From Raillietiella orientalis (Eukaryota): a DNA stretch of 47,060 nucleotides. This document shows, piece after piece, positions 12,795 through 41,792 of this stretch. Every line of letters begins with the position of its first letter. Position 1 is the stretch's first letter. A program made the position numbers and the translations under genes. The stretch is from positions 62,001-109,060 of the forward strand of contig JAYWIR010000118.1 of the NCBI GenBank assembly GCA_036172245.1. Direction: 5' to 3'. The notes under the pieces were generated by a model. It saw nothing but the letters and a program-made list of their open reading frames with translations, searched no databases and was not told where the DNA came from.

Positions 12795-14881
12795 TCTTTG
12801 AAATAAAAATACATGGTATATCGCGTGGCGAACTCGAAGGTTCACCACTCCAAAACAGCTTGCTGGTTACCAGCACCATGCCGGAGAGTTCCTTCCGATG
12901 CGCGGGGATAAGGAATATAGAAAAACAAAAAGAAACAAAAAGTTGAAATGTGGGTGGGGAAAAAATGTTGTAGGGGTGGGAGGGCCGGGAAGGGATCACG
13001 GTGAGCGTGGACAGGTTCTCTAGATCCTATTCAGGAATTGCACAAGCTGAGTCCTTTCAGCGCCCAAGTGGCGCCACTTGCAGACACTGCGCGCGAAAAG
13101 GCGAGTCCAGTGTAAGGCGTTGCCGGTTGGCTGTAGCCTTCTTCTGGTGGCGTTCCAAGCCGCCACTATTCCTCTGATGCAGCAGAGGACTGCTATACTA
13201 GCGGGAGGAAACAAGGCGTCACTACAGAAGAGGCGCCTGAAAACGTCCTTTGGGTTGCATCCGCGCAAGTTCAGGATCGCCGCGAGACGATCTCACAAAG
13301 GGCGGAAAGCGCCACACTCAAGGAGAAGGTGAGGGAATGTTTTTTTTTCCCCACACCGGTCACAATTGGGATCCACAGCCCCCCGGGTATTGTGGTGCAG
13401 GCGTGCTTTGAATGGAAATCCCCAGGGTACCACAAGCATCGCCACATCCTGCCATTTCAGGGGAAGAAATGCACTGTTCCAGGACGCTGGGGGCCACTTC
13501 ATCTCCTCCGGAGATAATCCGAGTAGCTCACCCCAGCGTCGAATTCCGTTGGTCGGGACACTCGGCGTCGCAGCGTCAGCTAGCTGCCGAGATGTCCACG
13601 CCTTTATCGATTGTGTCCTGCCGCCTATAGTGCAGGACACGGTTCATTTTCCCTGCTCGCTACTGTCCCTGGCATTCAAAAGGAAGGGCAGCACTGGGGC
13701 AGGGGGGTTATCAAGGCCCACAGAAGCTTGTCGTGGGACTGCACGATCTCCTGCAGCGACCAGCGGGCGTGCCTTTTCATACAAGTGTTCCTTGTGCCCG
13801 CCGGAACGTTGATCTTTTCTCAGGTGAAGACTGACTCGTGCAACCAGGCGGAGTAGTTTCCTGAGAGGCAGGAGATCCAGGCGTTCTCCCGAACCGCAAC
13901 GAAGATACATCGCAGCATGGAGCCACAGTATGGTCTTCTGCAGACGCGCGCAGACAGAAACGACAAAAGTCCGCCGATTCCGCAGGCTCGTTGTGCCAGG
14001 AGGCGTGCTGGAACGCACCAAGGCGTGTCCCACAATTCCGCCGCAAGGGCGAGAGTCCTGAATCTGAGTTTCAGTTTCATGCGCTCCAACGTAAGTACGC
14101 CAAGTCCACCGTCCTTACGTGGAGCGCACAAGTCTTTTAGCCTCACACGGGACCTCCCTTTGCCCCAAAGGACCGTCCTCAGGAGGCCCGCTGCTCGTTT
14201 CCGAATAAAATAAGGGGCGGGGCAAACAAAAAGTAGGGGGCGAAGGAGGGGAGCCGCAAACGCGTTCCACACCGCGGCCCGTTCCTGCAAGTAGAACTTG
14301 TCTTCTTGGAACGGACCGATCGCCAACGCTGCCTTTTGGAGACGGTCGGACCAGGCTTCTGCTGCGCAGAAGTCCCCCAACGGTACGCCGAGGTACTTGA
14401 AGCACCTGCCCGTGGGGATCCCCAAGCGGATCCAGTCTGACCGTCCAGCCCACGCCGAACCGACGAAGACCATGGACGACATCGCCCTGTTCACCTCCAG
14501 GCCCGTCCCGCGGCGCAGCAACTCGAAGAATTTTTCGAGTGCACTCGCCGGGGTGGACCCGGGAAGCAGCAGCAGAAGATCGTGTGCATAGACCGACACG
14601 GCAGGCGTGCCGGCACACGAGCTCGGCAGGGTTGCCAGAGTTACCCTGTATGCCCTCAGCACCAACTCTAAGTAGATGCTGAAAAGCAAGGGGCTCAGGC
14701 TGTCACCCTGCCGGATACCGAGTCGGACTGGCACGCCGTACACGTGCCGGCCGCTGAAACCAATATTAATTGACGCGTTGCGCCAGCAGGAGCGTAGGTA
14801 GGACTGGAGCACGGCCGGGAAACCCATGCGTTCCAGGAGCTCCAAAAGGAGTTCCTGGTCGACGAAGTCGAATGCTTTACG
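12765..14881 (-). mobile_element. Element G: 3' part of a LINE (from RT RKAFD to 3' end), degenerate
   Basis: ORF 13820-14845 (GIRQGDSLSPLLF, YAHD, FKYLGVPL), C-terminal CDRCGEKKTFPHLLLEC, stem-loop at 12765-12794. Confidence 0.92.
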
Positions 14882-14890
14882 TCGGCTAGA

Positions 14891-14902
14891 GCGGACGTGT
14901 TT
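14891..14902 (+). promoter_or_regulatory. 5'-terminal motif GCGGACGTGTTT (element H)
   Basis: 9 nt from the element's 5' junction. Confidence 0.55.
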
Positions 14903-16219
14903 CCTCGGTGCTCCTCGTGCCGGGAACCGTCCCTAGGTGTAGGCTTCGTGTGTGGTGGTGGTCGATCAGGCAGCAATGCCTGACGCGACTGTGGTGCACC
15001 TGTTGGTGCGTCCCCGCACGTCTCCTTCTCCAGCGAGCCACCGGCAAGACGGGACTGACGTCGTTTCTTGCACTCCGTCGCCGCGTCAACCGATGCGGAC
15101 TTCAGCTACGGAGGGTGGCTGCGCTGTATCGGAAAAACCCAGAATTGCTCACCTGTCGCCCGTTGAACAGTAGTGCCTGGTTGCAGGAAACAGTTCGAAC
15201 GTGGGGACAGTTCGGCATGCAACGCTCCCAACAGGAACGAAGGTTCCTGTTTGGGGGTTACAGAAGTTGCACGCTCTGCGAGATCATGGAGGATCCAAAG
15301 AAGAGAGCGTGGGCAGGAAGAACCCCCCTTGCTGCTGCGCTTTCCTCCCTGATGGAAGATCTAGACAGTGATGTTGCGGCGAAGTGGGTGGTTACAGTAA
15401 CAATCTCCGGAAAGGAGAAGAAGGTAGGAGAGTGTAAGACGGGCCAGTTAACAGACGCTGCGACCCCGAGTACGCCTCCCAATGGACTTCTGCTCTGGGG
15501 CGCGCTGCTCGATGTTCCCATTGAACATCTGAAGTGGCCCCCGGTGCTCATGAACACTTCCGCCCTCCCCTTAAAATGGCAGACGTCGGCTTTCCTGTTG
15601 CAGCACTGGGGACTCCCCTGCAACGCGTGCCGTCACCACTGGACCTGGGGAGCGGTGGACCCCAATTGCGTCAGGTGTGGGGAACGGGATTCCCTCCCCC
15701 TCCTGCTAGTGGATTGTGTTGCCCTTCGGCCCCTTTGGTTTCGCTTTGCCGCGGCCATTTGAAACCCCTGCGGCAACCCCAGGGACGCACTGAAAGCCCT
15801 CTTCGTTGCCGACGCCCTCCGGCCAGCGGCCTCCTTAGCAGCTTTGTGCTGCCTACGCTGGATCGTCACCGCTTGGAGGAAGGCTACGGGAGAACAACGC
15901 AACCAGGGTGCCATCCAGCCATCCTACCAGTTCCTCAGGAGGGCGTCCCGATGGCCCCACCTGGATCCAGGAATACAGAAGGAGCTTGCCGGCATCCTGC
16001 AAAGGAAGCAGCGGCCCCACCAGCAACTGTGATCCACTCCCTTACCCTTCCAACTTTTGTTTTCTTTTTTGTTTTTTTTTTTGTTTTTCCCTCTTCCCCC
16101 TACTGCCGTGGTGGACCGTATCGTTCTGCGAACCGATGACTCGGCAGGCTCTGTGTTGCTTTGAGCGTGGCTGGCGCAATGGTCCAGCCACCGCACGTCT
16201 TTGTAAATGTTTATTTTAC

Positions 16220-16250
16220 AATAAACGCCCCGGCGAAATCCGGGTAAAAA
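16220..16250 (+). other. 3'-terminal AATAAA + stem-loop (element H)
   Basis: aataaa cgccccgg cgaaat ccgggt aaaaa. Confidence 0.85.
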
Positions 16251-16416
16251 TTGACGGGGGAGACGAGCTTGCTTGGCTTTGTGGACTTACGTCCACCCTT
16301 CTTGCGCGGTGCCGTGGAAACGGAGTCTGCGCTTCCGGTCTCCACCTCGGGATCGGAAGTGGGGGACTCCTGAGGGGAGGCGGGACGCCTTACGGCCTTG
16401 TTGCCAGCCTTGGAGG
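16251..16416 (-). mobile_element. Element I, left piece: ORF1 C-terminal fragment
   Basis: Reverse complement matches element L ORF1 at ~41248-41412. Continues at 33892 after the inserted element J. Confidence 0.85.
16407..16416. repeat. Target site duplication of element J (gccttggagg), left copy
   Basis: Identical 10-mer at 33892-33901. The homologous uninterrupted ORF1 in element L has it once. Confidence 0.85.
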
Positions 16417-16447
16417 TTTACACCCGTGTACGCCTGGGGCGTTTATT
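16417..16447 (-). other. 3'-terminal AATAAA + stem-loop (element J)
   Basis: aataaa cgccccagg cgtac acgggtg taaa. Confidence 0.75.
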
Positions 16448-19400
16448 GTTAAAACTCTACATCCGCGGTACAAGGCCTTGCTCACGACCATATCCACTGG
16501 ACCTGCCGGGACGCCGCGACGCAGCCCAGCGTAGCGTTCCTCAGCAGCGAAGGGGGATGGGGATAAAACAAAAAGAAAAATAAAAAAATAAACAGACAAA
16601 AAGAAGTTGGAGGGCAGGGAAGGGATCACTAAACGCTTTGAGGAGGTCCCATCCGTTGAAGGATGCGCTCTCGGTCCGTCCGTATATCCGCCAGTTGGGG
16701 CCATCCGGAAGCTCTACGCATAAAGCGTTGGGCGCATGTGGCGACATCCCTCGCGTGTGGACCCACTCCTTCGTTATTGGCGTCGCTCCATGCCGTTACG
16801 ATGCCACGGAAACAGCACAAGGCTGCGATGGCTGCGGCTGGCTGCAGTGCGTCCTTCAGGAAGAATGGCCGAAGAACGTCTCTGGAGGTGCTCCCCGTAG
16901 GGAGCACGAGGTTCGCCCCGAACCGTTCCCAGAGGGGTCGAATGGCAACACTGTCCACAATAATGTGGGAGAGCGATTCCCACTCGCCGCACCTGACACA
17001 CTCAGTATCCACAGTTCCCCTTGTCCAGTGAAAGCGGCGTGCGTTGCAGGGTAAACCCCAGTGGAGCAGTAGAAACGCCGACTCTTGCAACTTAAGGGGT
17101 AGGATCTTGGATTCTTTCAGTACTGGGGGCCACTTCAGCACATCCGTATGGATGACGAGCAGCTCGCCCCATCTCATCAAACCACGCGGCTGGACGCTCG
17201 GGGTCGTGGCGTCCGCCATTCTTCTGTGGTCCAACCGCTAAACATCTTCTCCCTCCATGATATCTGGCAGGTGACTTGCCACATCGGCCTCTGGAGATCC
17301 TGAAGCGCCCTCAGGAGGTAGTGCATCGCCGTAGCAAGGAACGTCTTCAACGCCCACCTGCGACTCCGAAGAAATTCCAGTATTTCCCGCAGGGTGCGGT
17401 TGGCGTATGGGCAGATTCGCAGCCAGTTCATGTTGTTTTCACTGCTCCGGTTCTGCTTAGCCCATGTGCCAGCAAACTCTTCCAGCCAGGCGGAAGATAT
17501 GGCGAGGCCACAAAACATCCAACCGTTGTCTTCGCCAGGGTTGCTATGCATCCGAGCATAAGGACGCATCTTCGGATCTTCCGGCCAGGGCACAGAAGAA
17601 ACGATGCGAGTCCTTCGCATCGGGACACACGCCTGGCGAGGAGGCGGGCCGGAACGCACCAAGGGGTGCTCCACATCTTCGCTGCGATGGCGAGGGTTCG
17701 CCACCGCAGCTGGATTTCCACGCGCTCCAGCGTCAGGAGGCCAAGGCCGCCGTCCCTACGCGGAACGCACAAGTCCTTCAGAGGGACTCGGGGCCTTCCC
17801 TTGCCACAAAGGGCTATGCGGAGGAGGTCCTTTGTCTTCTTTTTGCATTCTCTGGGGGCGGGGCAAACAAAAAGCAAGTAGCGGAGGATGAAGGCCGCAA
17901 AAGCGTTCCAAACCGCGGCCCGTTCCGGCAAGTGAAACTTGCCTTCCAGGAACGGGCCGATCGCCGTCTCAACTTTTTGAAGACAGCTGGACCACGCTTT
18001 CGCAGGGGAGTAGTCACCCAACCGCACACCAAGGTACTTCAGGCACCTCGTCGTGGGGTTCCCTAGACGGACCCAGTCCTGATGCCCTACCAACGCCGCA
18101 CCAACTGCCACCACCGACGACTACGCCCTGTTGACCTGCAGTCCTTTGATACGGCTGAGCAGATCAAAGAAGTCTCCGACCGCCTTCTCCGGGGTGGACA
18201 TAGGTAAAAGGAGCAGAAGATCGTCGGCGTACGCTGCTACGGCGGGCGTGGCGGGGCACGAGCTCGGCTAGGGTGCCAAGGTAAACCTGTACGCTCTCAG
18301 CACCAACTCAATGTAGGTGCTGAAGAGCAGGGGACTAAGGTTGTCGCCCTGCCGTATGCCCCGCCGTAACAGCACGATGTACGCCTCCTGACTGATAGAA
18401 AAGATGGAGATCATCGCATTCCATTAGCAAGAGCGCAGGTAGGTAATCAAGGAGGATGGGAAGCCCATGCGACCCAGGAGCTCCAACAAAAGCACCTGGT
18501 CAACACAGTCGAACGCCTTATGGAGATCGACTGCGAGCGCTAAGGCCCCCTTCCCTGCCCAAGTGTCCATTCCCTACCCTGCTTGCGGCCCCAAATTGGG
18601 GTTGCCGATTTTTCCTCTCCCTTCCTTTTGACACCTCTGCGCGTGTATCCATGTCCTCGCGAAGAAGAGGTTGGCATCCATGCTTCGCCCGGGAACAGCA
18701 TAAGTCTGCTCCGGGCTAATTATGGATTCTGCCACCTGCCCCGGACGCGAAGCCCATAGCCCCGCAACCAACTTGGCGTCCGTATTCACAATCGTGATCG
18801 GACGCCAGTTGTTCAAATTCCTAAGGTCTCCCCCTTTCGGAAGGAGCCTCACTCTGGCTGAACGAAACGAGGCGGGAACATCGCCTTCGCCTCGGATCAG
18901 CCTTGTCAGCTGAAGCAGCAGGGGTGCCAGCTCTTCCGCAAAGCTCTGAGAGAACTCCGCGGGCAAGCCGTCTTACCTTGGAGCTTTCCGCCTCTTGAGC
19001 CTTTTGATACCGGCGAGAATTTCGCCGGTGGTAAAAGGCTCATCGAGGCTTAACGACTCCTCCTCCCCTATTCTCGCGACACCGTCCGGAAGCAAGAGCC
19101 AAGAAACATCTTGATCCGGGGGCGCCCTGGCGTAAAGGAAGCAATAATAACTCCGCACGAGATACCGTACCGACGCCGGGGACGAACATTCCCGGCACTG
19201 GTCGTTCAGAAAGCTGGCCGACCCGGATTGCCAGACTTGGCGTTCGGCCCCGGCGCGGTACTCGGCCAGGCGACGGGCATTAGGAGTTCGCTCGTAGCTA
19301 CGGGCCTGTAAATAGGCCCGATGGTTGCGAGGACCCTAGCCGAATCCGGAGGGCAGGCGGTCCAGGGGGAACTGCTCGCAGAACTCCCGGACCGATTCCT

Positions 19401-19751
19401 TAAAAAGGTCCCAGTCCTAAAGAATCGAGAGCGTGACGTCTCTCAGGTATTCGCGAAGGTGTTCCTTTGCACCTGAGAGTCGCAACCAGTCCGCGGGTAG
19501 ACGCCAGTCCCTGAATGGCAGTCCTTTGTCGCGATGCCGCATCTGGAAATTTAACCGGGAATGGTCCGACAACGTTGATGCAACCCTCCCTTGTTTGCCG
19601 ACACGTTAACACAGTTCAGCGTCGAGGAACACGTGGTCGATGCTGCGGACCATTCCCTTTTCACCCGCGACCAAGTTTTGCGCACGCATGGCGGCGCACA
19701 ACTCGTTCATAGCGTTCACTTGTGTTTCCGGCTCACCTGTTTGCAGGCGGA

Positions 19752-19760
19752 GATTGAAAT
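19752..19760. repeat. 9-bp TSD gattgaaat, copy 1 of 3
   Basis: Also at 25667-25675 and 31579-31587. Its reverse complement lies in the GDFN codons of element J's endonuclease. Confidence 0.9.
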
Positions 19761-19790
19761 TCATCACCCGGTCTAGCCGGGGAGTTTATT
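19761..19790 (-). other. 3'-terminal AATAAA + stem-loop (element K1)
   Basis: aataaa ctccccgg ctaga ccgggtg atga, then the TSD. Confidence 0.85.
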
Positions 19791-20072
19791 AATAATAATA
19801 AGCTGGTCAGGGACAATGCCCCAACCAACAGAACGACAGAGAACACAGAAAATCTACCGGCACGCAGTCCTGTTAAACAAACCGCTCGCAGCGTGGGGGG
19901 AATGAGGGGAAACAAACAAAAATCAAAAACTGGGGGGAAGGGAAAAGGGTTTTTGGTTAGGCTCCGTACTCACGGGGACTTATACGATGAGCACCTGAAA
20001 TGTTCCGGAGCCTATATGGAGGCGGGTGTAAAAACAAAATACAAATTTAGTTTATGGAGGGTAGGGCAATGA

Positions 20073-23000
20073 TCACCGGGTTGGCCGCTGATGAGGGTGT
20101 GTAAACCGGCGGTGTATTGCGGCGAGATTCCTTTTTGTCTCCTCTGTCAAATGAGGCCATCTAGCGGATGCTCCCATGTAGAAGGATGCTTTGCTGATTA
20201 CCTCTTGGTACTATTCGTTAATTACCAACGCCTGGCGGACAAAAGCTATCGCGCGTATGCAACCGATGGTTGTAATCCTTGCGCTTAGTGACAGCCCGCT
20301 CGGCGTGAAGAATCGTCGCAGAAAGTCTCTTGCGGTGTCCACGGGATGCAATAGTGCTGTTGCCAGCCTACGCCACAGTCCTTGTAGGACACCGCAGTCC
20401 AGAAGTAGGTGCGGAATCGACTCCGTCGATCCGCACCGAACGCAGTTCGCAGACGCAAGTCCCCCGGAGTCACGATGCCAACGCTCGTTGCACTGAAAAC
20501 CCCAGTGAACGAAAAGCAGCACAACTTGTTTCCAAGGAAGAGGGAGCAGCGAACTGTCAATACACTGTGGAGGGACTACAAGTTCTTCGGAATTGACAGC
20601 AAGTTCTTCTGCCCACCATAGGAGTCCCTTTGCAGTAAAACGAGGAGTGGCGGCGTCCGCCAACTCACTCGTCTTCCAGGCGCCAAGGATTTTGGTTTTT
20701 CCCGCTATCGTGCAAAAAACCTCCCACCTCGCCGGTTGGTAACTGTCGTTTCTTGCCCTAAGGGCAGACAGCGCTGCGGCAAGAGGCATGGCAGCCAGGG
20801 TAGAAAACTTCACCTCGTCCTGCAGTACTTCTTCCAAGGATCGTGAAAAAAATTGACGCAGGGGCCGAAGATCCTCAGGGCGTATTCCTTGGATCGCCGA
20901 CCAGGATTCAACAGACTCCTGCCGCCAAGCTTCAAAGTTTATTGGGCGGCAGGAGATCCACGAGTGAGCATCCAGAAGTGCGGTCAACTGCCGCAAAGGA
21001 GACCCGAAACCCCGCTTCCTGTATTGAGTGCTCGGCAAAAGCGAGAGAAATCCCTAGCTGCCGGCGCATCTCCGCAGGAGAATGCGGGATGGCACACACA
21101 GGGGGGATGTCCATAGCTGGGCACACAGTGCCAGCAGTCGGAACTGCACCTGCAGTCCCATTCGCTCCATTGTCAAGATAAACAAACCAGCATTCCGACG
21201 CGGAGCTCACAAATCTTTAAGGCGGATTCTGGATCTCGCCGGACCCCAGAAAGCGTTCCTGAGCAGTCGTTTAGCCCGCTGTTTTGCCGCATAGGGGGGG
21301 TCAAAAACCAAAAACGGAGGACGGAGGAGGGGGGCCACAAAGGTGTTCCAAATAGTCGCCCGTTCCTGCAAGGTAAACTTGCCGTTAAAGAACTGGCTGA
21401 TGGCCAACTCTGCTTTCTGAAGACAGTCCGCTCACGCTTCGGCTGCGCCGAAAGCGCCCAACGGAACGCCAAGGTAATTAAAGTACCCGCCCGTGGGGAT
21501 CCCCAGGCGGATCCAGTCGGACTGCCCCTCCCACGACGTACCCACAGGAACGACCACGCTATTCTCTCTGTTCACGCTCACGCCCGCTCCCCGACGAATC
21601 AGGTCAAAGAAATCCTCGACACTGGACGCCGGGGTGGACATGGGAAGAATAAAAAGCAGGTCATCAGCGTAGGCGGCCACGGCAGGCGTTCCCGGGCAGG
21701 AGCTTGGCAACTGAGACAGCGTCAGCCTGTATGCTCTTAGCAGCAACTCAAAGAAGATGCTGAAGAGCAAGGGGCTTAAGCTGTCGCCCTGTCGGATGCC
21801 CTTACGAACGGGAATACCATACACGCGGCAGCCGCTGAAAGTAATGCACGTTAGCGCGTGGCGCCAGCACGCGCGCAAATACAGCAGGAGTTGCGCCGGG
21901 AACCCAAGGCGTTCCAGAAGCTCCAAAAGCAGCTTCTGGTATACGCAGTCGAACGCCTTGTGGAGATCGACCGCGACCGCCAAGGCACCTGGCGTTCCCT
22001 CCTGCCGTCGGCGCCTGTTCTTCTTGCCTGCGGCAGTGACTTTCGCAGCAGCCTGGCTTTGCTGCGCCACAACTTCCTGCAGCTGCATCCATGTACGCGC
22101 GAAAAGGATGTTCGCCTTCATGGATCGTCCCGGAACCGCGTAGGTTGGTTCCGGGCTCACCACAGATTCCGCGATACTTTCTAACCGCGCGACCCACAGC
22201 TTGGAAAACAACTTGACGTCCGAGTTCACCAAGGTGATCGGACACCAGTTGTTAAGTTGACGCAAGTCCCCGCCTTTCGGCAGGAGACGCCCCTTCGCTG
22301 AGCGGAAGGAATCCGGGACATTCCCGGATTCACTCATCAGCGTCGCGAGTTTCAGAATCAAGGGAATGAGGTCCACTTCAAAGCACTGATAAAACCCTGC
22401 AGGAAGCCCATCATCGCCTGGCGCCTTTCGTCTCTTCAGCCCAGCGTTGGCGTACGAAAATTCATCCGCCGTGAAAAGCTCGTTGAGACGTTCGCGTTCC
22501 TCCTCGCCGACAACACGAGCATCCTGAGACAGGAGTATCTCAGAAAGAATATCCTCCGTCAGGGATTCCGCGTACAGCGAGGAGTAGTAGCGTCTAACGA
22601 TGCGGTGTACTTCGGCTGGGGCCGAACATTCCTGGCCCTTGTCGTCCAACAAGCATGCTGCTCCGGACTGCCAGACCTGGCGCTCGGCCCTCGCCTTGTA
22701 CTCCGCAAGACGCTTGACATCCGCGTGTCTCGAAAACGTGCGGGCCTGCAGAAAGTCTCTACTGTTGGCCACGCCCTCTCCGAAACCGCGTGGAAGCCGG
22801 TGCAAGTGGAATTATCAACAGAATTCGCGGACAGATCTTTTGAGATCGTCCCAGTCCGCAAGTTCTTGAATGGCAAAGCCCCGGAGGTATCCACGTAGAT
22901 GCTCCGCAGCCTCCGGTTGGCTCAGCCAATCCGCCTCCATCCTCCAGCTTTGCAACGGAGGCCCCCTGCCTGGCGGAAGGATCTGAAACTCCAACCTGTG

Positions 23001-23666
23001 GTGGTCAGACAGCTCAGTCAACAATCTTTCTCTCCTGCCCACACGCGAATGCAGGTTTTCATCGAGGAAAACGTGATCGAGCGATCTTTCCATTCCAGGT
23101 TCGCTGACCATCAAGTTGGCGGCGGAAACGGACGCGCACATCTCGATGGGCAGCGCGCGCTCCCTCGGGCGGCTCCAATCGTCGGAGAGCAGGCGGACGT
23201 TGAAGTCCCCAGCGACGAGGTGCGCCACTTGGAAGCCGGAGTTGTTGAGCCACTGGCTCTGCACCTCACCAAAGAAAGCTACTCTTTCTTCGAGGTAGCG
23301 AGAGCCACTCGGCGCGTAGACGTTCGTAACGACGAGATCGATGGACTCGGACCACTTGATGACAAGCTGGCCTATCCGTCCATCGTCATCGAAACGAACA
23401 CTACGCACCGCTTCCGCCGTTTTTCCTCTTACGAGGAACGCGACGCCGCACGTGTGTGCGCCGTCGCACCGCCAATGTAGCGTTCCGCCTGCGCGCTCCT
23501 CGATTTCGGCTGCCTGCTCGTCGGAGATTACGTGAATCTCCTGCAGGAGCGCGAGGTCGAAGGGGCGCAGTGCGTTGGCTACTAATCGCCTCTTCTCGTC
23601 GTTCTGTAGTCCGTTCACGTTCCAACACGTTACGGACAGACGACGAGAAGACGCGATTCCCCGCAT
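20073..23666 (-). pseudogene. K1 ORF2 (APE endonuclease, reverse transcriptase, CCHC finger; ~1190 codons) with premature stops
   Basis: ORF pieces 22815-23666 (EN), 21432-22805 (RT with AAYADD), 21207-21407 and 20211-21038 (CVRCGSTESIPHLLLDC). Confidence 0.92.
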
Positions 23667-25492
23667 TACTGCTGGGAAGGTGGCGGCTTTTTGCTCGCTT
23701 TATCCGGCGAGCAGACGGCGAGTAGCACGACTGGCTGGAGAGGACGGTCGCCACCGTCCTCTGTTGTGCTGCATGCATGTAATGCCTCCACGCCAGGCTG
23801 AATTCCGTCGGGTTTCGTGGAGACTTCGCGTTGCTTCGCGGCGAGCGTTGCCTGGCTGCCTACTTTTGATCGGCGCGCACACGCTTTCGAACGAGTTGTC
23901 CTCGTCTCGGTGATCGGAACGGCATCCATTTCGGAGTTCGACCGGCGCATGTTCGATCGGGTTTCGGCCTTCCGCGGAGCAGTGACAGGTTCTGCTGGAT
24001 TGACATCTGTCCTGTTTTCGTTTTCCGTCACCAGAGCATCGCTTTTGGTGACGGCTGCTTTCCCGGCGCGCGCGTTTTCAGCGTGCTCACGCGCAGAAGC
24101 ACGAGGGACCTTTGCTGAAGTCTTCTTTACTTCATTACGGTTCCTCACTTCGCGTGGCGCCGTAAATGGAGATTGTGCTCCATGGCCATCTTTGAAGCCA
24201 TCCGCGTCTTTGGACGGGAGCACTTTCGATGGCTCCGACACGCTCGTCATGGACGCTGCTTTCGGAAGGGCTTTTAATCCCTTCGTTGGCATGGCATCCG
24301 CGCCAGTCGACAGCTTGCTCTCCGACTGCGACGGCGTGAGATTTTTCTCCACTTTCGCGGTGTTCGATCGCGACGCGGATTTTTTTTTGCCGACTTTCGA
24401 AGTCGACACGGCACAACTTTTCTTACCCGATTTGGGCTTCTCAGCCACTGCAGGAGGTGTAGGAATGGATCTGACGGTACTGGAAGTGTCCTTACCGCCG
24501 TTGTCCATTGACGTCCCCGCCGGTTGCTCGAACTCCGAGAGAGCCGGGCGTGCTTGGGAAGGACAGCTATTGCGCCTAGGGGGACTTACCCTTGCCCCGG
24601 ATTCCCCGCACCCTTTCTTTTGCGGCTCCCCTGCCGCGAGAGGGGGTGCGCAGGGCTTCGCGTGCGAGGTTTCCTGCTGCTTTGGGGCGACATTCCGCCT
24701 CGCGTTTTTACCGAATTTCTGCCGTGGGGTCTCCAGGTTTTTCGCAGATTTTTTCTTCTTATCCGCGCTTTGTTTTTTAAAATGGAGCTCCGCGGCTGCC
24801 TTTTTTCGCAAAAGATCCGGGCAATTTTTCAATTGGTGCCCGGATAGTTTGCAATAACGGCATTTTCCAGAGGGGCATTTATCCAAACAATGCCCCTCCT
24901 TCCCGCATTGCTCGCACGTTTTTACTTTGCCCACGAACCACAGGTGAACGACCGTGTCATTCACCTGTAGTTTGGTAGGCAGCAGACGGCGGTCCGGCAT
25001 TGTAAGCCGGGCTCCAGCGACTCCGCTGTGTATGGACGGGAAGTCCTTGAGGTTGCTACGCACCCTCCACAGCGCATGGACCGTGGCGAATTTCGCCAAC
25101 GCGTTCCGAATATCAGTATCGGAGATTTCCGACTCGATGTCGAAAATCTCCACCACAAATGAGTCGTCCATGGCGGCCGGGAAGACCTTCTGGCCACGGA
25201 TCGACAACGGGGTGCGCAGCAAGCGTTGCACAAGTGCAGCGTCTTTGCAACGCACCTTGAAATAGCCCATGTCTTTTACGGGCATAATGGTGAGAAGGTC
25301 CTCCTCCCGCACGCCAACACGGGTCAGTTCATCGTTGAACTGATTCCCGTCGCGCGCAGAAAGAAAACCACTCACCTTATATCGGAGAGGAGGTCTATAG
25401 CCTTGGGCTTCGTATGCCCGCAACTCCGACTCGTCAAGTGGTTTCCCTTCGACGGCTGCTGTGGCAGCAACGTCAGCAAAACTCCTCTCCAT
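23666..25492 (-). CDS. K1 ORF1 protein (608 aa open; the N-terminal extension seen in K2 is cut by a TAG near 25506)
   Basis: CEQCGKEGHCLDKC and CRYCKLSGHQLKNC knuckles; near-identical to K2 ORF1. Confidence 0.8.
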   Translation of the reverse strand: MERSFADVAATAAVEGKPLDESELRAYEAQGYRPPLRYKVSGFLSARDGNQFNDELTRVGVREEDLLTIMPVKDMGYFKVRCKDAALVQRLLRTPLSIRGQKVFPAAMDDSFVVEIFDIESEISDTDIRNALAKFATVHALWRVRSNLKDFPSIHSGVAGARLTMPDRRLLPTKLQVNDTVVHLWFVGKVKTCEQCGKEGHCLDKCPSGKCRYCKLSGHQLKNCPDLLRKKAAAELHFKKQSADKKKKSAKNLETPRQKFGKNARRNVAPKQQETSHAKPCAPPLAAGEPQKKGCGESGARVSPPRRNSCPSQARPALSEFEQPAGTSMDNGGKDTSSTVRSIPTPPAVAEKPKSGKKSCAVSTSKVGKKKSASRSNTAKVEKNLTPSQSESKLSTGADAMPTKGLKALPKAASMTSVSEPSKVLPSKDADGFKDGHGAQSPFTAPREVRNRNEVKKTSAKVPRASAREHAENARAGKAAVTKSDALVTENENRTDVNPAEPVTAPRKAETRSNMRRSNSEMDAVPITETRTTRSKACARRSKVGSQATLAAKQREVSTKPDGIQPGVEALHACSTTEDGGDRPLQPVVLLAVCSPDKASKKPPPSQQ

Positions 25493-28900: not shown

Positions 28901-29578
28901 CTCCAACCTGTGGTGGTCAGAAAGCTCAGTCAACAATCTTCCTCTCCTACCCACACGCGAATGCAGGTTTTCATCGAGGAAAACGTGATCGAGCGATCTT
29001 TCCATTCCAGGTTCGCTGACCATCAAGTTGGCGGCGTGAACGGACGCGTACATCTCGATGGGCAGCGCGCGCTCCCTCGGGCGGCTCCAATCGTCGGAGA
29101 GCAGGCGGACGTTGAAGTCCCCAGCGACGAGGTGCGCCACTTGGAAGCCGGAGTTGTTGAGCCACTGGCTCTGCACCTTACCAAAGAAAGCTACTCTTTC
29201 TTCGAGGTAGCGAGAGCCACTCGGCGCGTAGACGTTCGTAACGACGAGATCGATGGACTCGGACCACTTGATGACAAGCTGGCCTATCCGTCCGTTGTCA
29301 TCGAAACGAACACTACGCACCGCTTCCGCCATTTTTCCTCTTACGAGGAACGCGACGCCGCACGTGTGTGCGCCGCCGCACCGCCAATGTAGCCTTCCGC
29401 CTGCGCGCTCCTCGATTTCGGCTGCCTGCTTGTCGGAGATCACGTGAATCTCCTGCAGCAGCGCGAGGTCGAAGGGGCGCAGGGCGTTGGCTACTAATCG
29501 CCTCTTCTCGTCGTTCTGCAGTCCGTTCACGTTCCAACACGTTACGGACAGACGACGAGAAGACGCGATTCCCCGCAT
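25989..29578 (-). pseudogene. K2 ORF2 (EN-RT-CCHC) with frameshifts and YADD>YDDD
   Basis: ORF pieces 28508-29578, 27636-28868, 27088-27624, 26621-27265 and 25989-26267. Confidence 0.92.
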
Positions 29579-31500
29579 TACTGCTGGGAAGGTGGCGGCT
29601 TTTTGCTCGCTTTATCCGGCGAGCAGACGGCGAGCAGCACGACTGGATGGAGGGGACGGTCGCCACCGTCCTCTGTCGTGCTGCATGCATGTAATGCCTC
29701 CACGCCAGGCTGAACCGCGTCGGGTTTCGTGGAGACTTCGCGTTGCTTCGCGGCGAGCGTTGCCTGGCTGCCTACTTTTGATCGGCGCGCACACGCTTTC
29801 GAACGAGTTGTCCTCGTCTCGGCGATCGGAACGGCATCCATTTCGGAGTCCGACCGGCGCATGTTCGATCGGGTTTCGGCCTTCCGCGAAGCAGTGACAG
29901 GTTCTGCTGGATTGACAGCTGTCCTGTTTTCGTTTTCCGTCACCAGAGCATCGCTTTTGGTGACGGCTGCTTTCCCGGCGCGCGCGTTTTCAGCGTTCTC
30001 ACGCGCAGTTGCACGAGGGACCTTTGCTGAAGTCTTCTTTACTTCATTACGGTTCCTCACTCCACGTGGCGCCGTAAATGGAGATTGTGCTCCATGGCCA
30101 TCTTTGAAGCCATCCGCGTCTTTGGACGGGAGCACTTTCGATGGCTCCGACACGCTCGTCATGGACGCTGCTTTCGGAAGGGCTTTTAATCCCTTCGTTG
30201 GCATGGCATCCGCGCCAGTCCAGAGCTTGCTCTCCGACTGCGACAGTGTGAGATTTCTCTCTGCTTTCGCGGTGTTGGATCGCGACGCGGATTTTTTTTT
30301 GCCGACTTTCGAAGTCGACACGGCGCAACCCTTCTTACCCGATTTGGGCTTCTCAGCCACTGCAGGAGGTGAAGGAATGGATCTGACGGTACTGGAAGTG
30401 TCCTTACCGCCGTTGTCCATTGGCGTCCCCGCCGGTTGCTCGAACTCCGAGAGAGCCGGGCGTGCTTGGGAAGGACACCTATTGCGCCTAGGGGGACTTA
30501 CCATTGCCCCGGATTCCCAGCACCCTTTCTTTTGCGGCTCCCCTGCCGCGAGAGGGGGTGCGCAGGGCTTCGCGTGCGAGGTTTCCTGCTGCTTTGGGGC
30601 GACATTCCGCCTCGCGTTTTTACCGAATTTCTGCCGTGGGGTCTCCAGGTTTTTCGCAGATTTTTTCTTTTTATCCGCGCTTTGTTTTCCAGGATGGAGC
30701 TCCGCGGCTGCCTTTTTTCGCATGAGATCCGGGCAATTTTTCAATTGGTGCCCGGATAGTTTGCAATAACGGCATTTTCCAGAGGGGCATTTATCCAAAC
30801 AATGCCCCTCCTTCCCGCATTGCTCGCACGTTTTTACTTTGCCCACGAACCACAGGTGAACGACCGTGTCTTTCACCTGTAGTTTCGTGGGCAGCAGACG
30901 GCGGTCCGGCATTGTAAGCCGGACTCCAGCGACTCCGCTGTGTATGGACGGGAAGTCCTTGAGGTTGCTACGCACCCTCCACAGCGCATGGACCGTGGCG
31001 AATTTTGCCAACGCGTTCCGAATATCAGTTTCGGAGATTTCCGACTCGATGTCGAAAATCTCCACCACAAATGAGTCGTCCATGGCGGCCGGGAAGACCT
31101 TCTGGCCACGGATCGACAGCGGGGTGCGCAGCAAGCGTTGCACAAGTGCAGCGTCTTTGCAACGCACCTTGAAATAGCCCATGTCTTTTACGGGCATAAT
31201 GGCGAGAAGGTCCTCCTCCCGCACGCCAACACGGGTCAGTTCATCGTTGAACTGATTCCCGTCGCGCGCAGAAAGAAAACCACTCACCTTATATCGGAGA
31301 GCAGGTCTATAGCCTTGGGCTACGTATGCCCGCAACTCCGACTCGTCGAGTGGTTTCCCTTTGACGGCTGCTGTGGCAGCAACGTCAGCAAAACTCCTCT
31401 CCATTGGCGAGAAAGACGAGGTGGAGGCGGCCGTCGGTTCCGCGATTGTAGATCCAGATGCTGTTCCTCCAACTTCAGTAGCTTCAAGTTGGGTCGACAT
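29578..31500 (-). CDS. K2 ORF1 protein, intact 640 aa (MSTQLEATEV...PPPSQQ), gag-like with two CCHC knuckles
   Basis: Uninterrupted frame from the ATG at 31500 to the TAA overlapping the ORF2 ATG. Confidence 0.88.
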   Translation of the reverse strand: MSTQLEATEVGGTASGSTIAEPTAASTSSFSPMERSFADVAATAAVKGKPLDESELRAYVAQGYRPALRYKVSGFLSARDGNQFNDELTRVGVREEDLLAIMPVKDMGYFKVRCKDAALVQRLLRTPLSIRGQKVFPAAMDDSFVVEIFDIESEISETDIRNALAKFATVHALWRVRSNLKDFPSIHSGVAGVRLTMPDRRLLPTKLQVKDTVVHLWFVGKVKTCEQCGKEGHCLDKCPSGKCRYCKLSGHQLKNCPDLMRKKAAAELHPGKQSADKKKKSAKNLETPRQKFGKNARRNVAPKQQETSHAKPCAPPLAAGEPQKKGCWESGAMVSPPRRNRCPSQARPALSEFEQPAGTPMDNGGKDTSSTVRSIPSPPAVAEKPKSGKKGCAVSTSKVGKKKSASRSNTAKAERNLTLSQSESKLWTGADAMPTKGLKALPKAASMTSVSEPSKVLPSKDADGFKDGHGAQSPFTAPRGVRNRNEVKKTSAKVPRATARENAENARAGKAAVTKSDALVTENENRTAVNPAEPVTASRKAETRSNMRRSDSEMDAVPIAETRTTRSKACARRSKVGSQATLAAKQREVSTKPDAVQPGVEALHACSTTEDGGDRPLHPVVLLAVCSPDKASKKPPPSQQ

Positions 31501-31560
31501 CGTCGTCAAAATGTACAACGCCAAGATGAAGCGGATGAAAGCACGGAGACGAGAGCGAAG

Positions 31561-31578
31561 AAAAACACGTCCGCACTC
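31561..31578 (-). promoter_or_regulatory. 5'-terminal motif GAGTGCGGACGTGTTTTT (element K2)
   Basis: Begins immediately after the TSD. Confidence 0.6.
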
Positions 31579-31587
31579 GATTGAAAT
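31579..31587. repeat. 9-bp TSD gattgaaat, copy 3 of 3
   Basis: Abuts the K2 5' end and continues into host EN (AHLIAGDFN on the minus strand). Confidence 0.9.
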
Positions 31588-32046
31588 CTCCCGCTATCAG
31601 GTGAGCCTTCCGCACGTTCGTGTCCGCCAGCCAGTCGCGCTTCAGGGAATCCAGCAGCCTCGTACGGTCGCTGTATCCCTGTTTACCGCTGGGGGCGTAC
31701 ACATTCGTGACGATCAATTCGATCGAGTCGGACCAGCTGAGAATCAGCTGACCGACCCGAGCGTCGTCATCGAAGCGCACGCCCTTCACGGCCGCGTCGA
31801 TGGCCGGCTTCACGAAGAACGCGACCCCGCAGGTGTTGCGGAGGCCGCACCCCCAATACAGCCGACCCCCCGCGATCGTCTCGATCTCCTGGGCGTCTGC
31901 CGCGGTGATCACGTGGATCTTCTGCAGCAGGGCCAGGTCGAGCTCACGCAGGGTGTCGGCCGTATCTCGCCTGTTACCGTCGTCGCGCAGCCCGTTGACG
32001 TTCCAACAGGCGGCGCGAATCCGACGGCGACTGGCGAGCCCAGGTG

Positions 32047-33798
32047 TAATTCCTGGGAAGATGGCGATGTGGCGTCCACCACCTGTTGGGGCGGGACGCT
32101 AGGTGGAGGAGGAGGGTCAGGCGCTGCGTGCACCTGGTCCCCCTCCTCCATCGGTGCCGGCGCGTCGGCCGGATCACCCGCAGGTGGAGTCGCGCCTACC
32201 TGTTCGCCCTTCTCCATGGAGGCGGGCTGTTCAGGGTCGGCGCCTGCAGGGGGGACTTCATCCCCCTGTTCACCCTCCTCCATGGCTATGGCCGGATCGA
32301 CGGCTTGCGAGCGTAAGAATTCCTCCTGCGAATTTCCCACGCTGGCGACGGCTTCCGTCTTCTCCTTCTCGCTGGTGGAGGGGAGGCGCCTCCTGGGCTT
32401 CTGGGACTTGCGTCCCGACTTCCTGGGGGGTGCCTCCGAGGAGGAGGATCTGCTTCCGGCCTCCAGGTCTAACTCACCTGTGGAGGCCATCTTCGCCGTA
32501 GCCGGCCTTCGCACGGCGTTGCGCGAGGGATTCTCACGCTCTGCCAGCGTGACCGCGTGCTCCTCCGCCGCCTGCGCGAACGCGGCGTCCGCGGCTTCGA
32601 CCGCCGCTATGTCGCGCGGCTCACCCTCTGTGTTTACAGAGGGTTTGCCGTCGCGAGCCTCCGGCGCAGCGGAAACGGCAAGGGGAGGATCGACACTCCG
32701 TGTGGCAAACTCGGGAACGACGATTTGTTCTAGTGCCACCGTGTTCTCGCGCAGAGTTTTCGAGCGCGGACCGGGTTTTTTTTGGCTAACCGGCCGTCTT
32801 GCGCTGTTTGCTCTCCGCGGGTGGGAGTTTTCTCGGCTTTCTAGCTTCTACAAGGTGCCATCCCTCTTCGCCTTCCACCGTTTCAGAAGGTTTATCCTCC
32901 GGCTTACACGCCGGCGGTTGAGGTGTTGGCAGCTTGTGCTGGCCCTTTTGCACTTTAGTTTTAGAGACCTTTGAAGAGCGTTTCCCCTGCGCTTTCTTCG
33001 CGGTAGGGGGAACCGGGGTGGGGCGTTTCTGTCACACGCTCCGAACGGAGCCCCGCTCCCCGCGCAAATGGCATTGTATATTGGGACACCTTTTACGTAG
33101 GTGTCCCGCGGTATCACAATGCCAGCAATACCGGGGCTTCCCTACATACCACAAGTCGACGTTTTCTTGTGCCACCTTTAGTTTGTGGAGAAGACCAGAA
33201 TTCTCCCGTACGGTGACCCGCGCTGCAGCCTGCCCACCAAAAAGGCTATGGAAGCCGTCGAAAATGGAAGGTTTCGGCCACAGTGCGTGCACCTCACCGT
33301 ACTTTCTTAATTCCTCACCAACCGCTGATAGCGTCATTAGGCTGGTGATGCCAGTCATGTGGACCACCACGGAGCGGTCCATGGATACTGGCAGGATCTT
33401 GCGGCCGTCTACGTTCAGCGGCGCATGGATTAGGCGGTGAGCCAAGGTGACATCTTTGGAGACCACCTCGACCCGCTGCCCGCCGCTGAGGACGGAGAGG
33501 CCGTTTAGATCCTTCTCAGTATCATTCGCGTCCTTCAATGCTTTGCTGAAGGCGCGCGCTGAACGGCCGTCGAAGAAGTTGCCTACCTGGTAGACAAGCG
33601 ATAACTTGTACCCTTAGGCCTTGTATGCGGCCATCTCCGCCATGGCTTCTGCGCTGGGCGCGGCCACCATGGCGCTCCATGTCCTCGGCGTGGCCGGGGA
33701 TGTTTCCGAGGCGGCTGCTTCTGCTCCAGTAGGCTGTGGGGGAGAACTAGCCTCCCCCAATCCCACCTTTATCGCGGTGTTCTCTGACGTCGTGACCA
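32047..33798 (-). pseudogene. Element J ORF1, disrupted
   Basis: ORF pieces 33614-33835, 33032-33538 (WYVGKPRYCWHCDTAGHLRKRC) and 31909-32739 (MEEG repeats). Homologous to element C ORF1. Start approximate. Confidence 0.8.
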
Positions 33799-33871
33799 TT
33801 GGACACCAACGATGTACCCAAAACACCACACACAAGAAAGCGCTTTCCTACTACTCTTCGGAGAGTGGAGG

Positions 33872-33886
33872 AAAAACACGTTCTCC
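33872..33886 (-). promoter_or_regulatory. 5'-terminal motif variant GGAGAACGTGTTTTT (element J)
   Basis: 5 nt inside the right TSD. Confidence 0.5.
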
Positions 33887-33891
33887 AGCTG

Positions 33892-34160: not shown

Positions 34161-34164
34161 GTGC

Positions 34165-38170: not shown

Positions 38171-38171
38171 C

Positions 38172-39871
38172 GTGCCACGTTGTTGCGATAAGAGCGCCTT
38201 TATCCAGTCCGTCTTTGCTGAAGAAGCGTCGAAGCAGGTCTGTGGCAGTGTCCTGAGGACGACCAAGTGCCGAAGCAAGTCTCCGCCATAACTCCCGCAA
38301 GTCACTACACTCAAGGAGCAGGTGCGTAAGCGATTCTATCGCCCCGCACCTGAGGCAGTTTGGGGAGACGACTCCCCCTGTAACCAAGTTTCTGCGCTTA
38401 TTACACTGGAATCCCCAGTGCAGAGAAGAAACTTCCTGTTTCCATCGAAGCGGAAACACGGAGCTGTCCACACACAAGGAAGGGACCACGAGATCTTCAA
38501 GGAGTAATCCAAGAACCTCAGTCCAACGAAGAAGTCCCTTTGTCAGGTAACAAGTAGTGGCAGCGTCTACCAACACGCTCGTTCTGCAGCCGCTCAGCAG
38601 TCTCTTACTCCTGCAATGCTGCAGAAGAACTCCCACCTTGCCGGTTGGCTACTGTCGTTGTTTGCCTTGAGAGCAGACAGCGCTGCGGCGATGGGTGAGA
38701 CGACTATCCGGGACCAAAGCGACCAGTCCTGTAGGATCACTCCTGGCGGTTCGCGTAAGAGGCCCTATAAGTGTCGCAGTTGCTCTAAGCGCACATCCAA
38801 AGCGGACGTCCAGTGCTCCAGAGCTTCCTGCAGCCAAGCATTTCAATTAAAGGGGCGGCAGGAAATCCAGGAATGGGCTAACAGCAACGAGGACAAATGC
38901 CTCAGTGGGTAGCCAAATCCAGTTCTCCGGCGAAGGTTGCAAGGCAGCAACGAAAGCAATCCTGCACTGCCGACACATCGCTGGAGAATATGAGAAGCCG
39001 GAGCACACCAGTGACTAGACCACAATTCTCCACATAGGGATAGAAGCCGGAACTGCACTTGCAGTCCAATCTTCTGGATGGTCAGGATGCCTAGGCCTGC
39101 GTCCTAGCATGGCGCCACCAAATCTTTGGAGCGAACCCTGGATCGCGCAGCGCCCCACAAGACCTTACGTAGGAGACGCTGCCCCCGGAGTTTAACCACA
39201 TAGGAAGGCTGGCAAACAAAAAATAAGGGGCGGAGGAGGGATGCAAGGAAAGTGTTCCATATGCACGCCCTTTCCGGTAAGACGAACTTGCCTTCCAAGA
39301 ACGGGCCTACAGCCATCTCTGCCTTTTGAAGACAGGCCGACCACGATTCAGACGAGCAGAAGTCGCCCAACGGTACGCCAAGGTACTTGTAGCACCTGAA
39401 CGTGGGGATCCCCAGGCGAATCCAGTCGGCCTGTCCCTTTCACGACGCACCCACCGGCACGACGGAGCACTTCGCCCTGTTAACGCTCATGCCCGCTCAA
39501 CGACGGATCAGCTCGAAGAAGTCTTGGACCGAGTCCGGCGGAGTAGACATGGGCAACAGAAGCAGAAAGTCGTCGGCATATGCTGCCGCGAACGCAGTGC
39601 ACGGAGAGGTGATGGGCAGGACGGCCAGCGTCACCCTGTACGCTTTTAGCACCAACTCAAAGTAGATGCTGAAGAGCAACGGGCTTAAGCTGTCGCCCTG
39701 TCTGATGCCTCTGCGCAAGGCCACTCCGTACACGCGGGAGCCACTGAAATACAAGTTGATAATCGCGTGACGCCAGCAGAAGCGCAAGTACAGGAGAAGA
39801 TGATTCGGAAGCCCAAGACGCTCCAGGAGCTCCAAGAGGAGTTACTGGTTTACGCAGTCAACCGCTTTGCG
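38172..39871 (-). mobile_element. Element O: internal ORF2 fragment (RT RKAVD to CCHC finger), lacking both termini
   Basis: GIRQGDSLSPLLF, AAYADD and CLRCGAIESLTHLLLEC. No 3' UTR or stem-loop at the left end. Confidence 0.9.
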
Positions 39872-41792
39872 TGCTCCAGGGTGGATGCGTTTTCTCGGTG
39901 CTCCTCGTGCCAGGAAGTCTCACCCACTGCAAGCGTCGTGTGGTTCGGTGGTCGATCAGGCAGCGATGCCTGACGCGATTACCAGGGATGGCCAGAGGGC
40001 AGCGAACACGCCACCCCCAGAGGCGATAAAGAGCCAGGGGGCGGCGGCAACGTCACCATCAGAGGCGATAAAGGTGGGGGCATATGCCCCCACAGAATCG
40101 GTCCCCGCTGCAGCGCCGGCGTGGAGAGCCGTTGTGTCGGCGCCAACGCCTGCAGCCGCGGCGGAATTGTCGGCCTATGTAGAGTAGGGGTACAAACCCT
40201 CATTGTTCTACAAGGTAGGCAATTTATATTCTTTAGAGAGCGCGCGCGCCTTCTCGAAGGGCAAGCCCGCTCTCGATGTGAAAGAGCAGGAGCTCAGCGC
40301 TATGACCATCCGCAGCGGGGGTCAGTACGTTCAGGTCATCTGCAAACAAGCAGAGCTGGCCCAACGACTGCTTAAAACCCCCGTTGTGATGGGGACGCGC
40401 AGGCTCCTCCCCACTACGGCGGACCGCAGCATGGTGGTCCACCTGTTAGGCGTAACCGCGCGAATGCGCAAAGAACAGGTTCGCGCCGCTTTGGAACAGT
40501 TCGGAACGGTCCACGCGCAGTGGACGAAAGTAAGTATTTTCGAGGACTACACGGGGCTGCAACACAACCTCACTGCTACGCGCGTGACCGTTTGGGAGGG
40601 CTGCACTCTTCCCCACAAACTGGTTGTCAAAGGCGAAACCGTCGACTTCTGGTATGTGGGGAAGCCGAAATACTGTGGCTTCTGCAATAGGTCGGGCCAC
40701 CTCAAAAGGAGGTGTCCCAATGTGCAGTGCCAAGTATGCGGAACCATGGGACACACGAGGGAGGTGTGCCCTAAAGCAGCAGTGTGGGTGGTTTCCAAGA
40801 GAAACCTTCAAAAACGTGCCCGGCTTCTGCAGAAAAGGCTGGCAGCGAAAGCTAAAGCAAAAGCTGTGCCACCCGGGCCCAAGGGCCAGGCCGCACCCGA
40901 GACCCCTGCGACCAACTTCGAACAAGTCGAAGGAACAAACCAGGAGCCTGGGTGGCGGGTGGCTACGGCCAAAAAATCAAAGAAGGATTAAAGGATGGAG
41001 AAAAAGCTCACGTACCGTCAGAAAAAACAGCAGGCAAGCGAGCAAATTAAAGAATGCAGCGTTGTCGCCGTGCATATTCTCGACCGCTGCGAAAGAGAAA
41101 TCGCCGCTACCGTCGACCACACCTCTGTTGAATCTGTCAACAGCGAGGGGAGCGAGCCGGCGGGGGCGTCCGTCATCGACACCACCACCGATGACGTAGC
41201 CTTCGCGCGAGCCGCGGAGGAGCTGGCAGCCTCGTTGCAGCCGGAACCCTCCAAGGCTGGCAAGAAGGCCGTAAAGCGTCCGGCCTCCACTCGGGAGTCC
41301 CCGACTTCCAACCTCGAGGTGGAAACCGGAAGCGCAGCCTCCGTTTTCACGGCAACGCGCAAGAAGGCTGCACGTAAGTCCACAAAGCCAAGGAAGCTCG
41401 TCTCCCCCGTCGAAGGGGAAAAAAGGCTCCCGCAAGCGAGGGTGCCATGAGCGTGGGAAACTCTCGGGACCCGTCGCCCGAGAGACTCCCACGCGCGGAC
41501 ACGGAGGGGATGCAGGGGGTGGAAGCCGAACAGGTGCTTCAGGTGCTTGAGAAGGCCGAAACCCCCATGGACATCCCGCCTGCCTCGCAAGAGGAGGGCT
41601 CCCACACACCTTAATCTTCCCAGCAGTAATGCCGGGAATCTCCTCCCGCGGTCGACTGCGCATCGCCGTTTGGAACGTGAACGGCATGACAGACGTCGGA
41701 AAAAGATGAGACATGGTCGCCCTACAGGAGTTCTACCACCTTGCGCTGCTGCAGAAGATCCACGTGAACTCTGCACAACAAGCGCAAGAGAT
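39872..41792 (+). mobile_element. Element L: 5' part of a LINE (5' UTR, ORF1, start of EN), interrupted by element P
   Basis: ORF 40203-40991 has WYVGKPKYCGFCNRSGHLKRRC and CQVCGTMGHTREVC. TAATG at 41627-41631, followed by WNVNG and LQKIH. Confidence 0.92.
39966..41629 (+). pseudogene. Element L ORF1 with in-frame stops
   Basis: ATG at 39966 (MPDAITRD...); stops at 40187, 40991 and 41450; homologous terminal stop at 41629. Confidence 0.8.

Follow-up and report, generated by a model that had tools for sequence, protein, structure and literature searches.

Why do two reverse transcriptase copies of different retrotransposon subfamilies break off at the same base of the same codons, each against an antisense insert? 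This question is raised by a stretch of 47,060 nucleotides (nt) from Raillietiella orientalis (GenBank assembly GCA_036172245.1, contig JAYWIR010000118.1, positions 62,001 to 109,060), hereafter the window, the whole of which consists of nested, related retrotransposons of the non-LTR type (LTR, long terminal repeat), or long interspersed nuclear elements (LINEs), lying on both strands. Individual elements are denoted by letters. The two broken copies, G and O, serve as hosts to the inserts H and L, and both are interrupted at the codons for RKAFD, which belong to motif A of reverse transcriptase (RT).

Elements were delimited by tblastn, BLAST, Pfam and a regular-expression (regex) search for 3' tails. 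The queries of the tblastn map were five reference pieces from the window itself, namely open reading frame 1 (ORF1), endonuclease (EN), the N- and C-terminal halves of RT and the C-terminal region. LINE ORF1, EN, RT and C-terminal pieces were found to span the window nearly end to end on both strands. The two interrupted sites and the reference site comprise the following features.

12764..14881, minus strand: host G, the 3' portion of a LINE, starting at the RKAFD codons and reaching the 3' tail (tblastn map; regex tail)
14867..14881, minus strand: RKAFD codons of G, the last host bases before the insert (BLAST, D 8319 paired with 14881)
14882..14988, plus strand: H leader, 11 nt (tcggctagagc) and a 96-nt block from GGACG, the 5' end of the antisense insert
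38181..39871, minus strand: host O, a LINE from its RKAVD codons onward, comprising RT and the C-terminal part (tblastn map; BLAST)
39857..39871, minus strand: RKAVD codons of O, the last host bases before the insert (BLAST, D 8319 paired with 39871)
39872..39978, plus strand: L leader, 11 nt (tgctccagggt) and a 96-nt block from GGATG
8319..8333, plus strand: intact RKAFD site in D, the copy nearest to G, used as empty-site reference (alignment, tree, BLAST)

On the plus strand, positions 14867-14881 read gtcgaatgctttacg, which on the complementary strand gives cgt aaa gca ttc gac (RKAFD) of host G. They are followed by 11 nt (14882-14892) and then by GGACG at 14893. At the other site, host O has cgc aaa gcg gtt gac (RKAVD), which appears on the plus strand as gtcaaccgctttgcg at 39857-39871 and is again followed by 11 nt (39872-39882) and then by GGATG at 39883. 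The leader blocks behind these joins, 14893-14988 in H and 39883-39978 in L, share 79.2% identity over 96 nt. Host G is recognized by Pfam as RVT_1 (E 8.9e-11 on 13820-14932), and its tail (aataaatgccccggcacatccgggtgtgaat) terminates at 12764, in sense orientation, within ORF1 of element F. The 3' untranslated region (UTR) of O extends to the left of 38181.

To place these joins on the motif, the window was searched in six frames for KA[FV]D, and the ten sites found (n=10) were aligned at the codon level. In the uninterrupted sites (7 of the 10), the Arg/His codon is preceded by ...gcNgtcgcNgtcgatctN(cgt/cac), and G and O part from this homology precisely at the Arg codon. The same boundary emerged from BLAST with D, an uninterrupted copy, since the alignments of G and O both start at D 8319, whereas uninterrupted copies align to D from 8287 or 8295. 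Three of the ten sites are occupied, all by antisense inserts, with two 5' junctions at one base and one 3' junction. By our own arithmetic, the chance that a second random 5' end falls on the homologous base in the same orientation is about 1e-4, given 10 sites, 47,060 bases and two strands. The two base-precise junctions at the same host base are thereby confirmed as real and beyond chance.

The two hosts were hit independently. In a maximum-likelihood (ML) tree built from 1050 nt downstream of the K codon, for the nine RT copies having that stretch, the hosts fall into two clades, each supported at 100/100: (D, G, E1, U) and (O, V, C, T1, T2). G groups with D (100/98) and O with V (93/92), and identities over these ~1050 nt amount to 64% for G-O, 76% for G-D and 72% for O-V. 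The motif is uninterrupted in D and V, the nearest copies to G and O. Had one junction been duplicated at the DNA level, G and O should be sisters; constraining them to one clade costs 141.7 log-likelihood units and is rejected by the approximately unbiased (AU) test (p-AU 5.8e-5), which excludes one old junction that was copied. A preliminary description of this DNA had drawn attention to the two stops, to the antisense inserts with 11 nt before GGA(C/T)G, to the different subfamilies of the hosts and to the divergence of the H and L UTR leaders. All of these readings are borne out here, and the single ancient insertion that it had named as the alternative is contradicted by the host phylogeny.

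The third junction shows the opposite edge of an insert at the same motif.

1..924, plus strand: host A0, whose RT breaks off after ...cac aaa gca ttc gat (HKAFD, 910-924) (six-frame search, tblastn)
923..3274, minus strand: E1, an antisense E-type element whose 3' tail (...cagggtgaaaat) adjoins the KAFD codons of A0 (tblastn, regex)

A0 ends with ...AAAGCATTCGAT at 924, and next comes tttcaccctgatttcgccggg..., in which the E1 3' tail reads in reverse complement; near 3274 the 5' end of element B interrupts the upstream part of E1. Written in the orientation of the insert, with a slash at the junction, the 5' flanks are ...GTCGAATGCTTTACG/ in G and ...GTCAACCGCTTTGCG/ in O, and the 3' flank in A0 is ...GGGTGAAAAT/CGAATGCTTTGTG. 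The 5' edge (/RKAFD) and the 3' edge (KAFD/, 924/925), although seen in different hosts, share 13-16 bp, oriented as in a target-site duplication, with the exact span depending on how many A/T bases of the tail are assigned to the host. RKAFD is retained on both sides, as the upstream host half lies beside the 3' end of an insert and the downstream host halves lie beside 5' ends. Because of this overlap with duplication geometry, we take the G and O junctions for the upstream edge of the target at KAFD. The preliminary description had proposed a second base-precise hotspot used by another subfamily; its base precision in hosts of different subfamilies stands, but what looked like a second hotspot is most probably the opposite edge of a single staggered KAFD target.

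Complete insertions of other families show the same geometry with duplications of 8-13 bp. The insertion of T1/T2 in U is bounded by an 8-bp duplication, ATTTCAAT, and U itself is inserted in element X as follows.

16416-19759 plus 31580-33876, minus strand: U, a complete sense insertion in the ORF1 tail of X (host X at 16252-16415 and 33877-~34300)

The U insertion carries a 9-13-bp duplication, (AAC)CTCCAAGGC, as checked against the uninterrupted relative L at 41245-41257.

The two inserts at RKAFD differ in their makeup behind the leader.

39979..41791, plus strand: L body, the remaining 5' UTR, ORF1 and the start of the endonuclease (tblastn, Pfam, regex)
14990..16251, plus strand: H body, the C-terminal part of an E-type ORF2 and the 3' UTR
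16252..16415, minus strand: fragment of host X (C-terminal region of ORF1) ending ...KLVSPV/ at the H 3' tail, 90-91% identical to L

L contains ORF1 at 40188-40991, with a weak CCHC knuckle (zf-CCHC, 16.7 bits against a Pfam cut-off of 20.8), and the endonuclease start at 41614-41793, and the antisense element V interrupts it at 41792 with its 3' tail. It looks like a plain full-length copy, the rest of which would lie outside the window together with the upstream half of O. Of the H/L lineage's endonuclease, the window contains only the first ~60 residues, in L.

H is a composite, and the earlier view of it as a simple element was not upheld. At 14989/14990, its 107-nt leader gives way to the final 1.26 kb of an E-type element, so that 14990-16254 matches E1 2184-920 at 92.4% identity over 1265 nt without gaps, covering the last third of ORF2 and the 3' UTR. 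The join falls at the E-type ORF2 codons LWCTCWC and has 1 nt of shared sequence. It may have arisen by deletion or recombination between two inserts, or as a template-switch chimera. At its other end, the H tail adjoins host X at ...KLVSPV/ and not KAFD. The simplest account would be a later deletion or recombination between a full-length insert, H0, in the KAFD site of G and another, E-type insert in X, with both lying on the plus strand. An insertion-linked deletion of 2.2 kb within one host (X = G) is also possible; the X and G sequences do not overlap. Since H is composite, the window holds no proof that the H/L leader and the E-type tail are of one family.

All five leader types of the window begin with CNAGNGY-GGAYGYGTTT at the 5' end. 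The 11 nt ahead of the H and L blocks gave no BLAST alignment to each other, but the 7 nt preceding GGAYG are homologous between families (CTAGAGC, CCAGGGT, CGAGTGC), which indicates that at least 7 of the 11 nt are element sequence rather than filler. Both leaders contain a hairpin of 7 bp, TCAGGCA-GCRA-TGCCTGA (14960-14988 in H, 39950-39978 in L), whose loop changes from GCAA to GCGA between H and L, both being GNRA loops. The whole leaders fold no better than shuffled sequences (z-scores -1.06 and -0.10). A ribozyme at the 5' end, of the type resembling that of hepatitis delta virus (HDV), was considered and rejected, given that Rfam had 0 matches at the gathering score in the whole window, 0 matches at E<=1 in 14800-15100 and only three chance-level matches in 39790-40200, none of them a ribozyme, and that the P1 pairing GGACG/CGTCC of H is, by eye, not kept in L. 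A metagenome scan with an 18-nt leader word was likewise discarded, as its 91 loci were at the level of chance, with only word matches (19-36 nt) and 0/91 having LINE proteins by tblastn.

From the arrangement of these sequences, we consider it probable that L and H0, the element to which the H leader belongs, represent full-length members of a single lineage of L1/Tx1-like LINEs with an apurinic-type (APE) endonuclease, which integrates by target-primed reverse transcription (TPRT) at a single fixed site, the DNA encoding RKAFD of other LINE families, always in antisense. Specificity would come from the endonuclease. In this mechanism, the target duplex would carry ...GTCGATCTGCGTAAAGCATTCGATTGC..., and the first nick would be made in the host sense strand, within ...GCATTCG^AT. 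The nicked end would then prime cDNA synthesis from the tail of the element, formed by a hairpin plus GGGTGAAAAT. The second nick would fall in the other strand, just past ...GCTTTRYG and 13-16 bp off, and the full-length 5' end (4 + 7 nt, then GGAYGYGTTT...) would join there, leaving the RKAFD codons duplicated. Full-length 5' ends are thus expected to adjoin ...GAATGCTTTRYG, and the other end is expected to read ...GGGTGAAAAT/CGAATGCTTT in the same host.

Several observations weigh against this proposal. The evidence at KAFD codons in the window consists of two 5' junctions and one 3' junction only, none of the three has its counterpart in the same host (0/3), and the duplication is put together across different hosts. 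H is flanked by different hosts, G at RKAFD on the 5' side and X on the 3' side, without a common duplicated sequence, and if it is two fused elements, the H/L leader type lacks a tie to the E-type 3' tail by which the downstream edge is marked. A single insertion and independent insertions cannot be told apart by divergence alone, as the G-O identity per 96-nt window ranges over 51-78% and is 69% beside the junction, compared with 79% for the leaders. A divergence clock based on leaders at 79% and hosts at 64% was set aside for this reason: the difference from the mean has a binomial p of 0.001, yet host windows reach 78%. Finally, a public sequencing run, X1, which contains 0.18 of the sampled words and gave contigs of 150-260 nt, yielded no contig bridging 14881/14882 among the rows listed, and its depth falls from ~46 to 4-9 across the junction. 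In the same run, two contigs matching G up to 14881 go on into CAAATCGACAGCGACCGCAAGGGCACC, the antisense of ...GALAVAVDL, which is the intact continuation of the host. An apparent X1 joint at 14718-14896 was disregarded because its 28-nt side occurs in a single contig.

Among the other explanations, two separate hotspots are unlikely, though they deserve to be spelled out. An E-type lineage would use KAF^D and an H/L-type lineage would use ^RKAFD, 15 bp upstream, with the H/L 3' junctions elsewhere or at another offset. Such a scheme is in keeping with the fact that no element in the window displays both edges, and with the H leader not being attachable to an E-type body if H is a fusion. However, the offset and its direction exactly fit a duplication of ordinary length, as judged from the complete insertions above, and unrelated sites would give no reason for RKAFD to stand on both host halves.

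We regard it as quite improbable that the junctions are rearrangements instead of site insertions, arising by twin priming, by head-to-head cDNAs from the two nicks of one break or by template switching, with host cDNA that stops at RKAFD. Head-to-head joins of minus and plus elements are indeed frequent in the window (e.g. C against D at 8155, and V against Y2 near 46010-46060), and H itself proves that non-canonical joins happen. Yet these processes leave the identical stop base in two host clades and the 3' junction at 924/925 unexplained. Twin priming in particular is rejected, because it requires one RNA, whereas the two arms, G and H, belong to different families and overlap in content.

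The last two explanations have very little probability left. A single ancient insertion whose junction was multiplied later as DNA, by segmental duplication or through a chimeric transcript from an antisense promoter in the leader, could appeal to the position of the 79% leader identity at the top of the 51-78% host range, but it should make G and O sisters, against the host tree, its AU test and the uninterrupted D and V. Equally implausible is a misassembly at short shared words, for which the fully repetitive region (100% nested repeats) and the want of a listed X1 contig across 14881/14882 might speak, given that host and leader have no common sequence at the junction to mislead an assembler, that two loci agree on base and 11-nt spacing despite their differing sequences and that X1 contig depth is present in 30/30 bins of 14400-15400.

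The elements of the window have an ORF2 that encodes an APE endonuclease followed by RT, with Pfam matches in family T to Exo_endo_phos (E 7.2e-13) and RVT_1 (E 6e-16); RVT_1 is also found in elements G and C. A match to zf-RVT reaches 24.9 bits, below the Pfam cut-off of 27.5, and CxxC...H...C strings are visible in the translations. The nearest solved protein chain is human LINE-1 ORF2p (E 1.9e-37, versus 1e-15 for R2), and the nearest database proteins, unnamed or vertebrate and plant L1-like proteins, are only ~31% identical. The 3' ends in the window are all of one architecture, AATAAAYGCCCCGG-loop-CCGGGTGNNAAN without poly(A) (nine by regex, plus D). The shared tail can be written as AATAAAYGCCCCGG-loop-CCGGGT followed by ~6 nt, for example at 923-954, 5524-5554, 12764-12794, 16220-16251 and 41792-41822. 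It resembles a recognition hairpin of the stringent RT type, which would be common to all families of the window.

Within the window the leader type tracks the site of insertion, as seen for H and L at RKAFD. The other leaders, with their identity to H/L, are found at the sites below, to which a site of two tail junctions is added.

B leader, 51-58% to H/L: DVKL codons of E1, antisense
T1/T2 leader, 44-48% to H/L: GDFN of the endonuclease, sense
U leader, about 31% to H/L (the U coordinates missed the GGAYG-equivalent start): ORF1 tail, sense
~10331/10333 and 35539/35541, tail junctions of D and W: base-precise recurrent site

The 5' end of B (GGACG at 3279) adjoins, in antisense, the DVKL codons of the E1 RT (window 3272-3283). 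T1 and T2, 95% alike, form a head-to-tail pair in sense orientation at the GDFN codons of the U endonuclease (19760-31579, minus strand), with one copy of the 8-bp target word ATTTCAAT retained between them; this tandem suggests two successive hits at one site. D (plus strand) and W (minus strand), 93% alike, have their 3' tails adjoining, in antisense, the codons ECS(G/A)AA(E/G)/ in hosts F and Z. D, at 8540-8620, is without ~50 RT codons around the YxDD region when compared with G (...FELV/RDGMGLEVN...), and W is 5'-truncated at 37259, at a D coordinate just past this RT gap. C and V lie in antisense against the N-terminal part of the endonuclease in hosts B and L (5523/5524 and 41791/41792), at GRRL/ for C and AQE/ for V; these positions are ~8 codons apart and are thus different sites.

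Taken further, these elements might form a guild of sister LINE lineages whose APE endonucleases have been retargeted to each other's most constrained coding motifs, so that LINE-only arrays would build themselves. The H/L type would use the RKAFD codons, with both nicks fixed by sequence, so that 5' and 3' junctions alike would be precise to the base. As the motif could not change at the protein level, host families would have no easy escape, and each hit would inactivate a competitor. We put this extension forward tentatively, at slightly less than even chances.

Target-specific LINEs are known for ribosomal DNA (rDNA), small nuclear RNA (snRNA) genes, microsatellites and a few transposons. 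If the proposed mechanism is true, the landing site here would be the sequence encoding a catalytic motif of rival LINEs, which would amount to hyperparasitism among retrotransposons. It would also provide a concrete way for LINE-only nested arrays to grow, as in the Zepp-type clusters of algal centromeres, and a natural APE endonuclease with a defined target of 13-16 bp, which would be of interest for site-specific integration. The addition of the 5' edge to the 3' edge fixes the likely stagger of the two nicks.

Among known systems, R1 and R2 of rDNA (R1Bm endonuclease, PMC1919474; R2 ribozyme, PMC3774820) show site-specific TPRT whose target is conserved and multicopy and whose junctions are base-precise at either end. 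R2 possesses a restriction-like endonuclease and a 5' HDV-like ribozyme, whereas the window elements are of the APE type and neither leader matches a ribozyme family. Plant LTR retrotransposons also nest preferentially in defined parts of other retroelements, but by integrase rather than TPRT and with a regional preference instead of a single base (PMC6911290).

The cluster structure itself has its counterpart in Zepp of Coccomyxa/Chlorella and ZeppL of Chlamydomonas, which form clusters of L1 LINEs (PMC8226300, PMC3446292, 10.1101/2022.06.16.496473, 10.1101/2025.03.28.645958). Their nested clusters are described as arising by a mechanism "that targets existing copies" (PMC8226300). Like the window, they are GC-rich clusters of L1-clade LINEs in which nearly all copies are nested in one another; the passages available name no base-precise target or coding motif. 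Chlamydomonas has a single ZeppL family, whereas the window contains several families 60-76% alike, each with its own site. In contrast to Zepp, full-length 5' ends are common in the window and the tails consist of a hairpin plus GGGTGNNAAN without poly(A).

The Tx1 group resembles the window in that APE-type LINEs of the L1 superclade reside at fixed sequences inside other repeats, transposons included. Tx1L reportedly produces a target-site duplication, at a site determined by its endonuclease. Tx1 is found in the piggyBac-type Tx1D of Xenopus, Tx1-Mar in Mariner-N4_AMi, Tx1-8_Crp and Tx1-4_AMi in LTR retrotransposons, and Keno in U2 snRNA genes (PMC4494074). The passages and listings covered by our literature search contained no LINE with RT-motif coding DNA of other LINEs as its fixed target, which is not proof of absence from print. 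Unlike the targets of the Tx1 group, the target here is the coding DNA of RT motif A (RKAFD) in sister LINE families, and the landing elements carry the same motif themselves. Among the systems compared, a target-specific APE-type LINE of the L1/Tx1-like kind would be the best fit to the elements at RKAFD.

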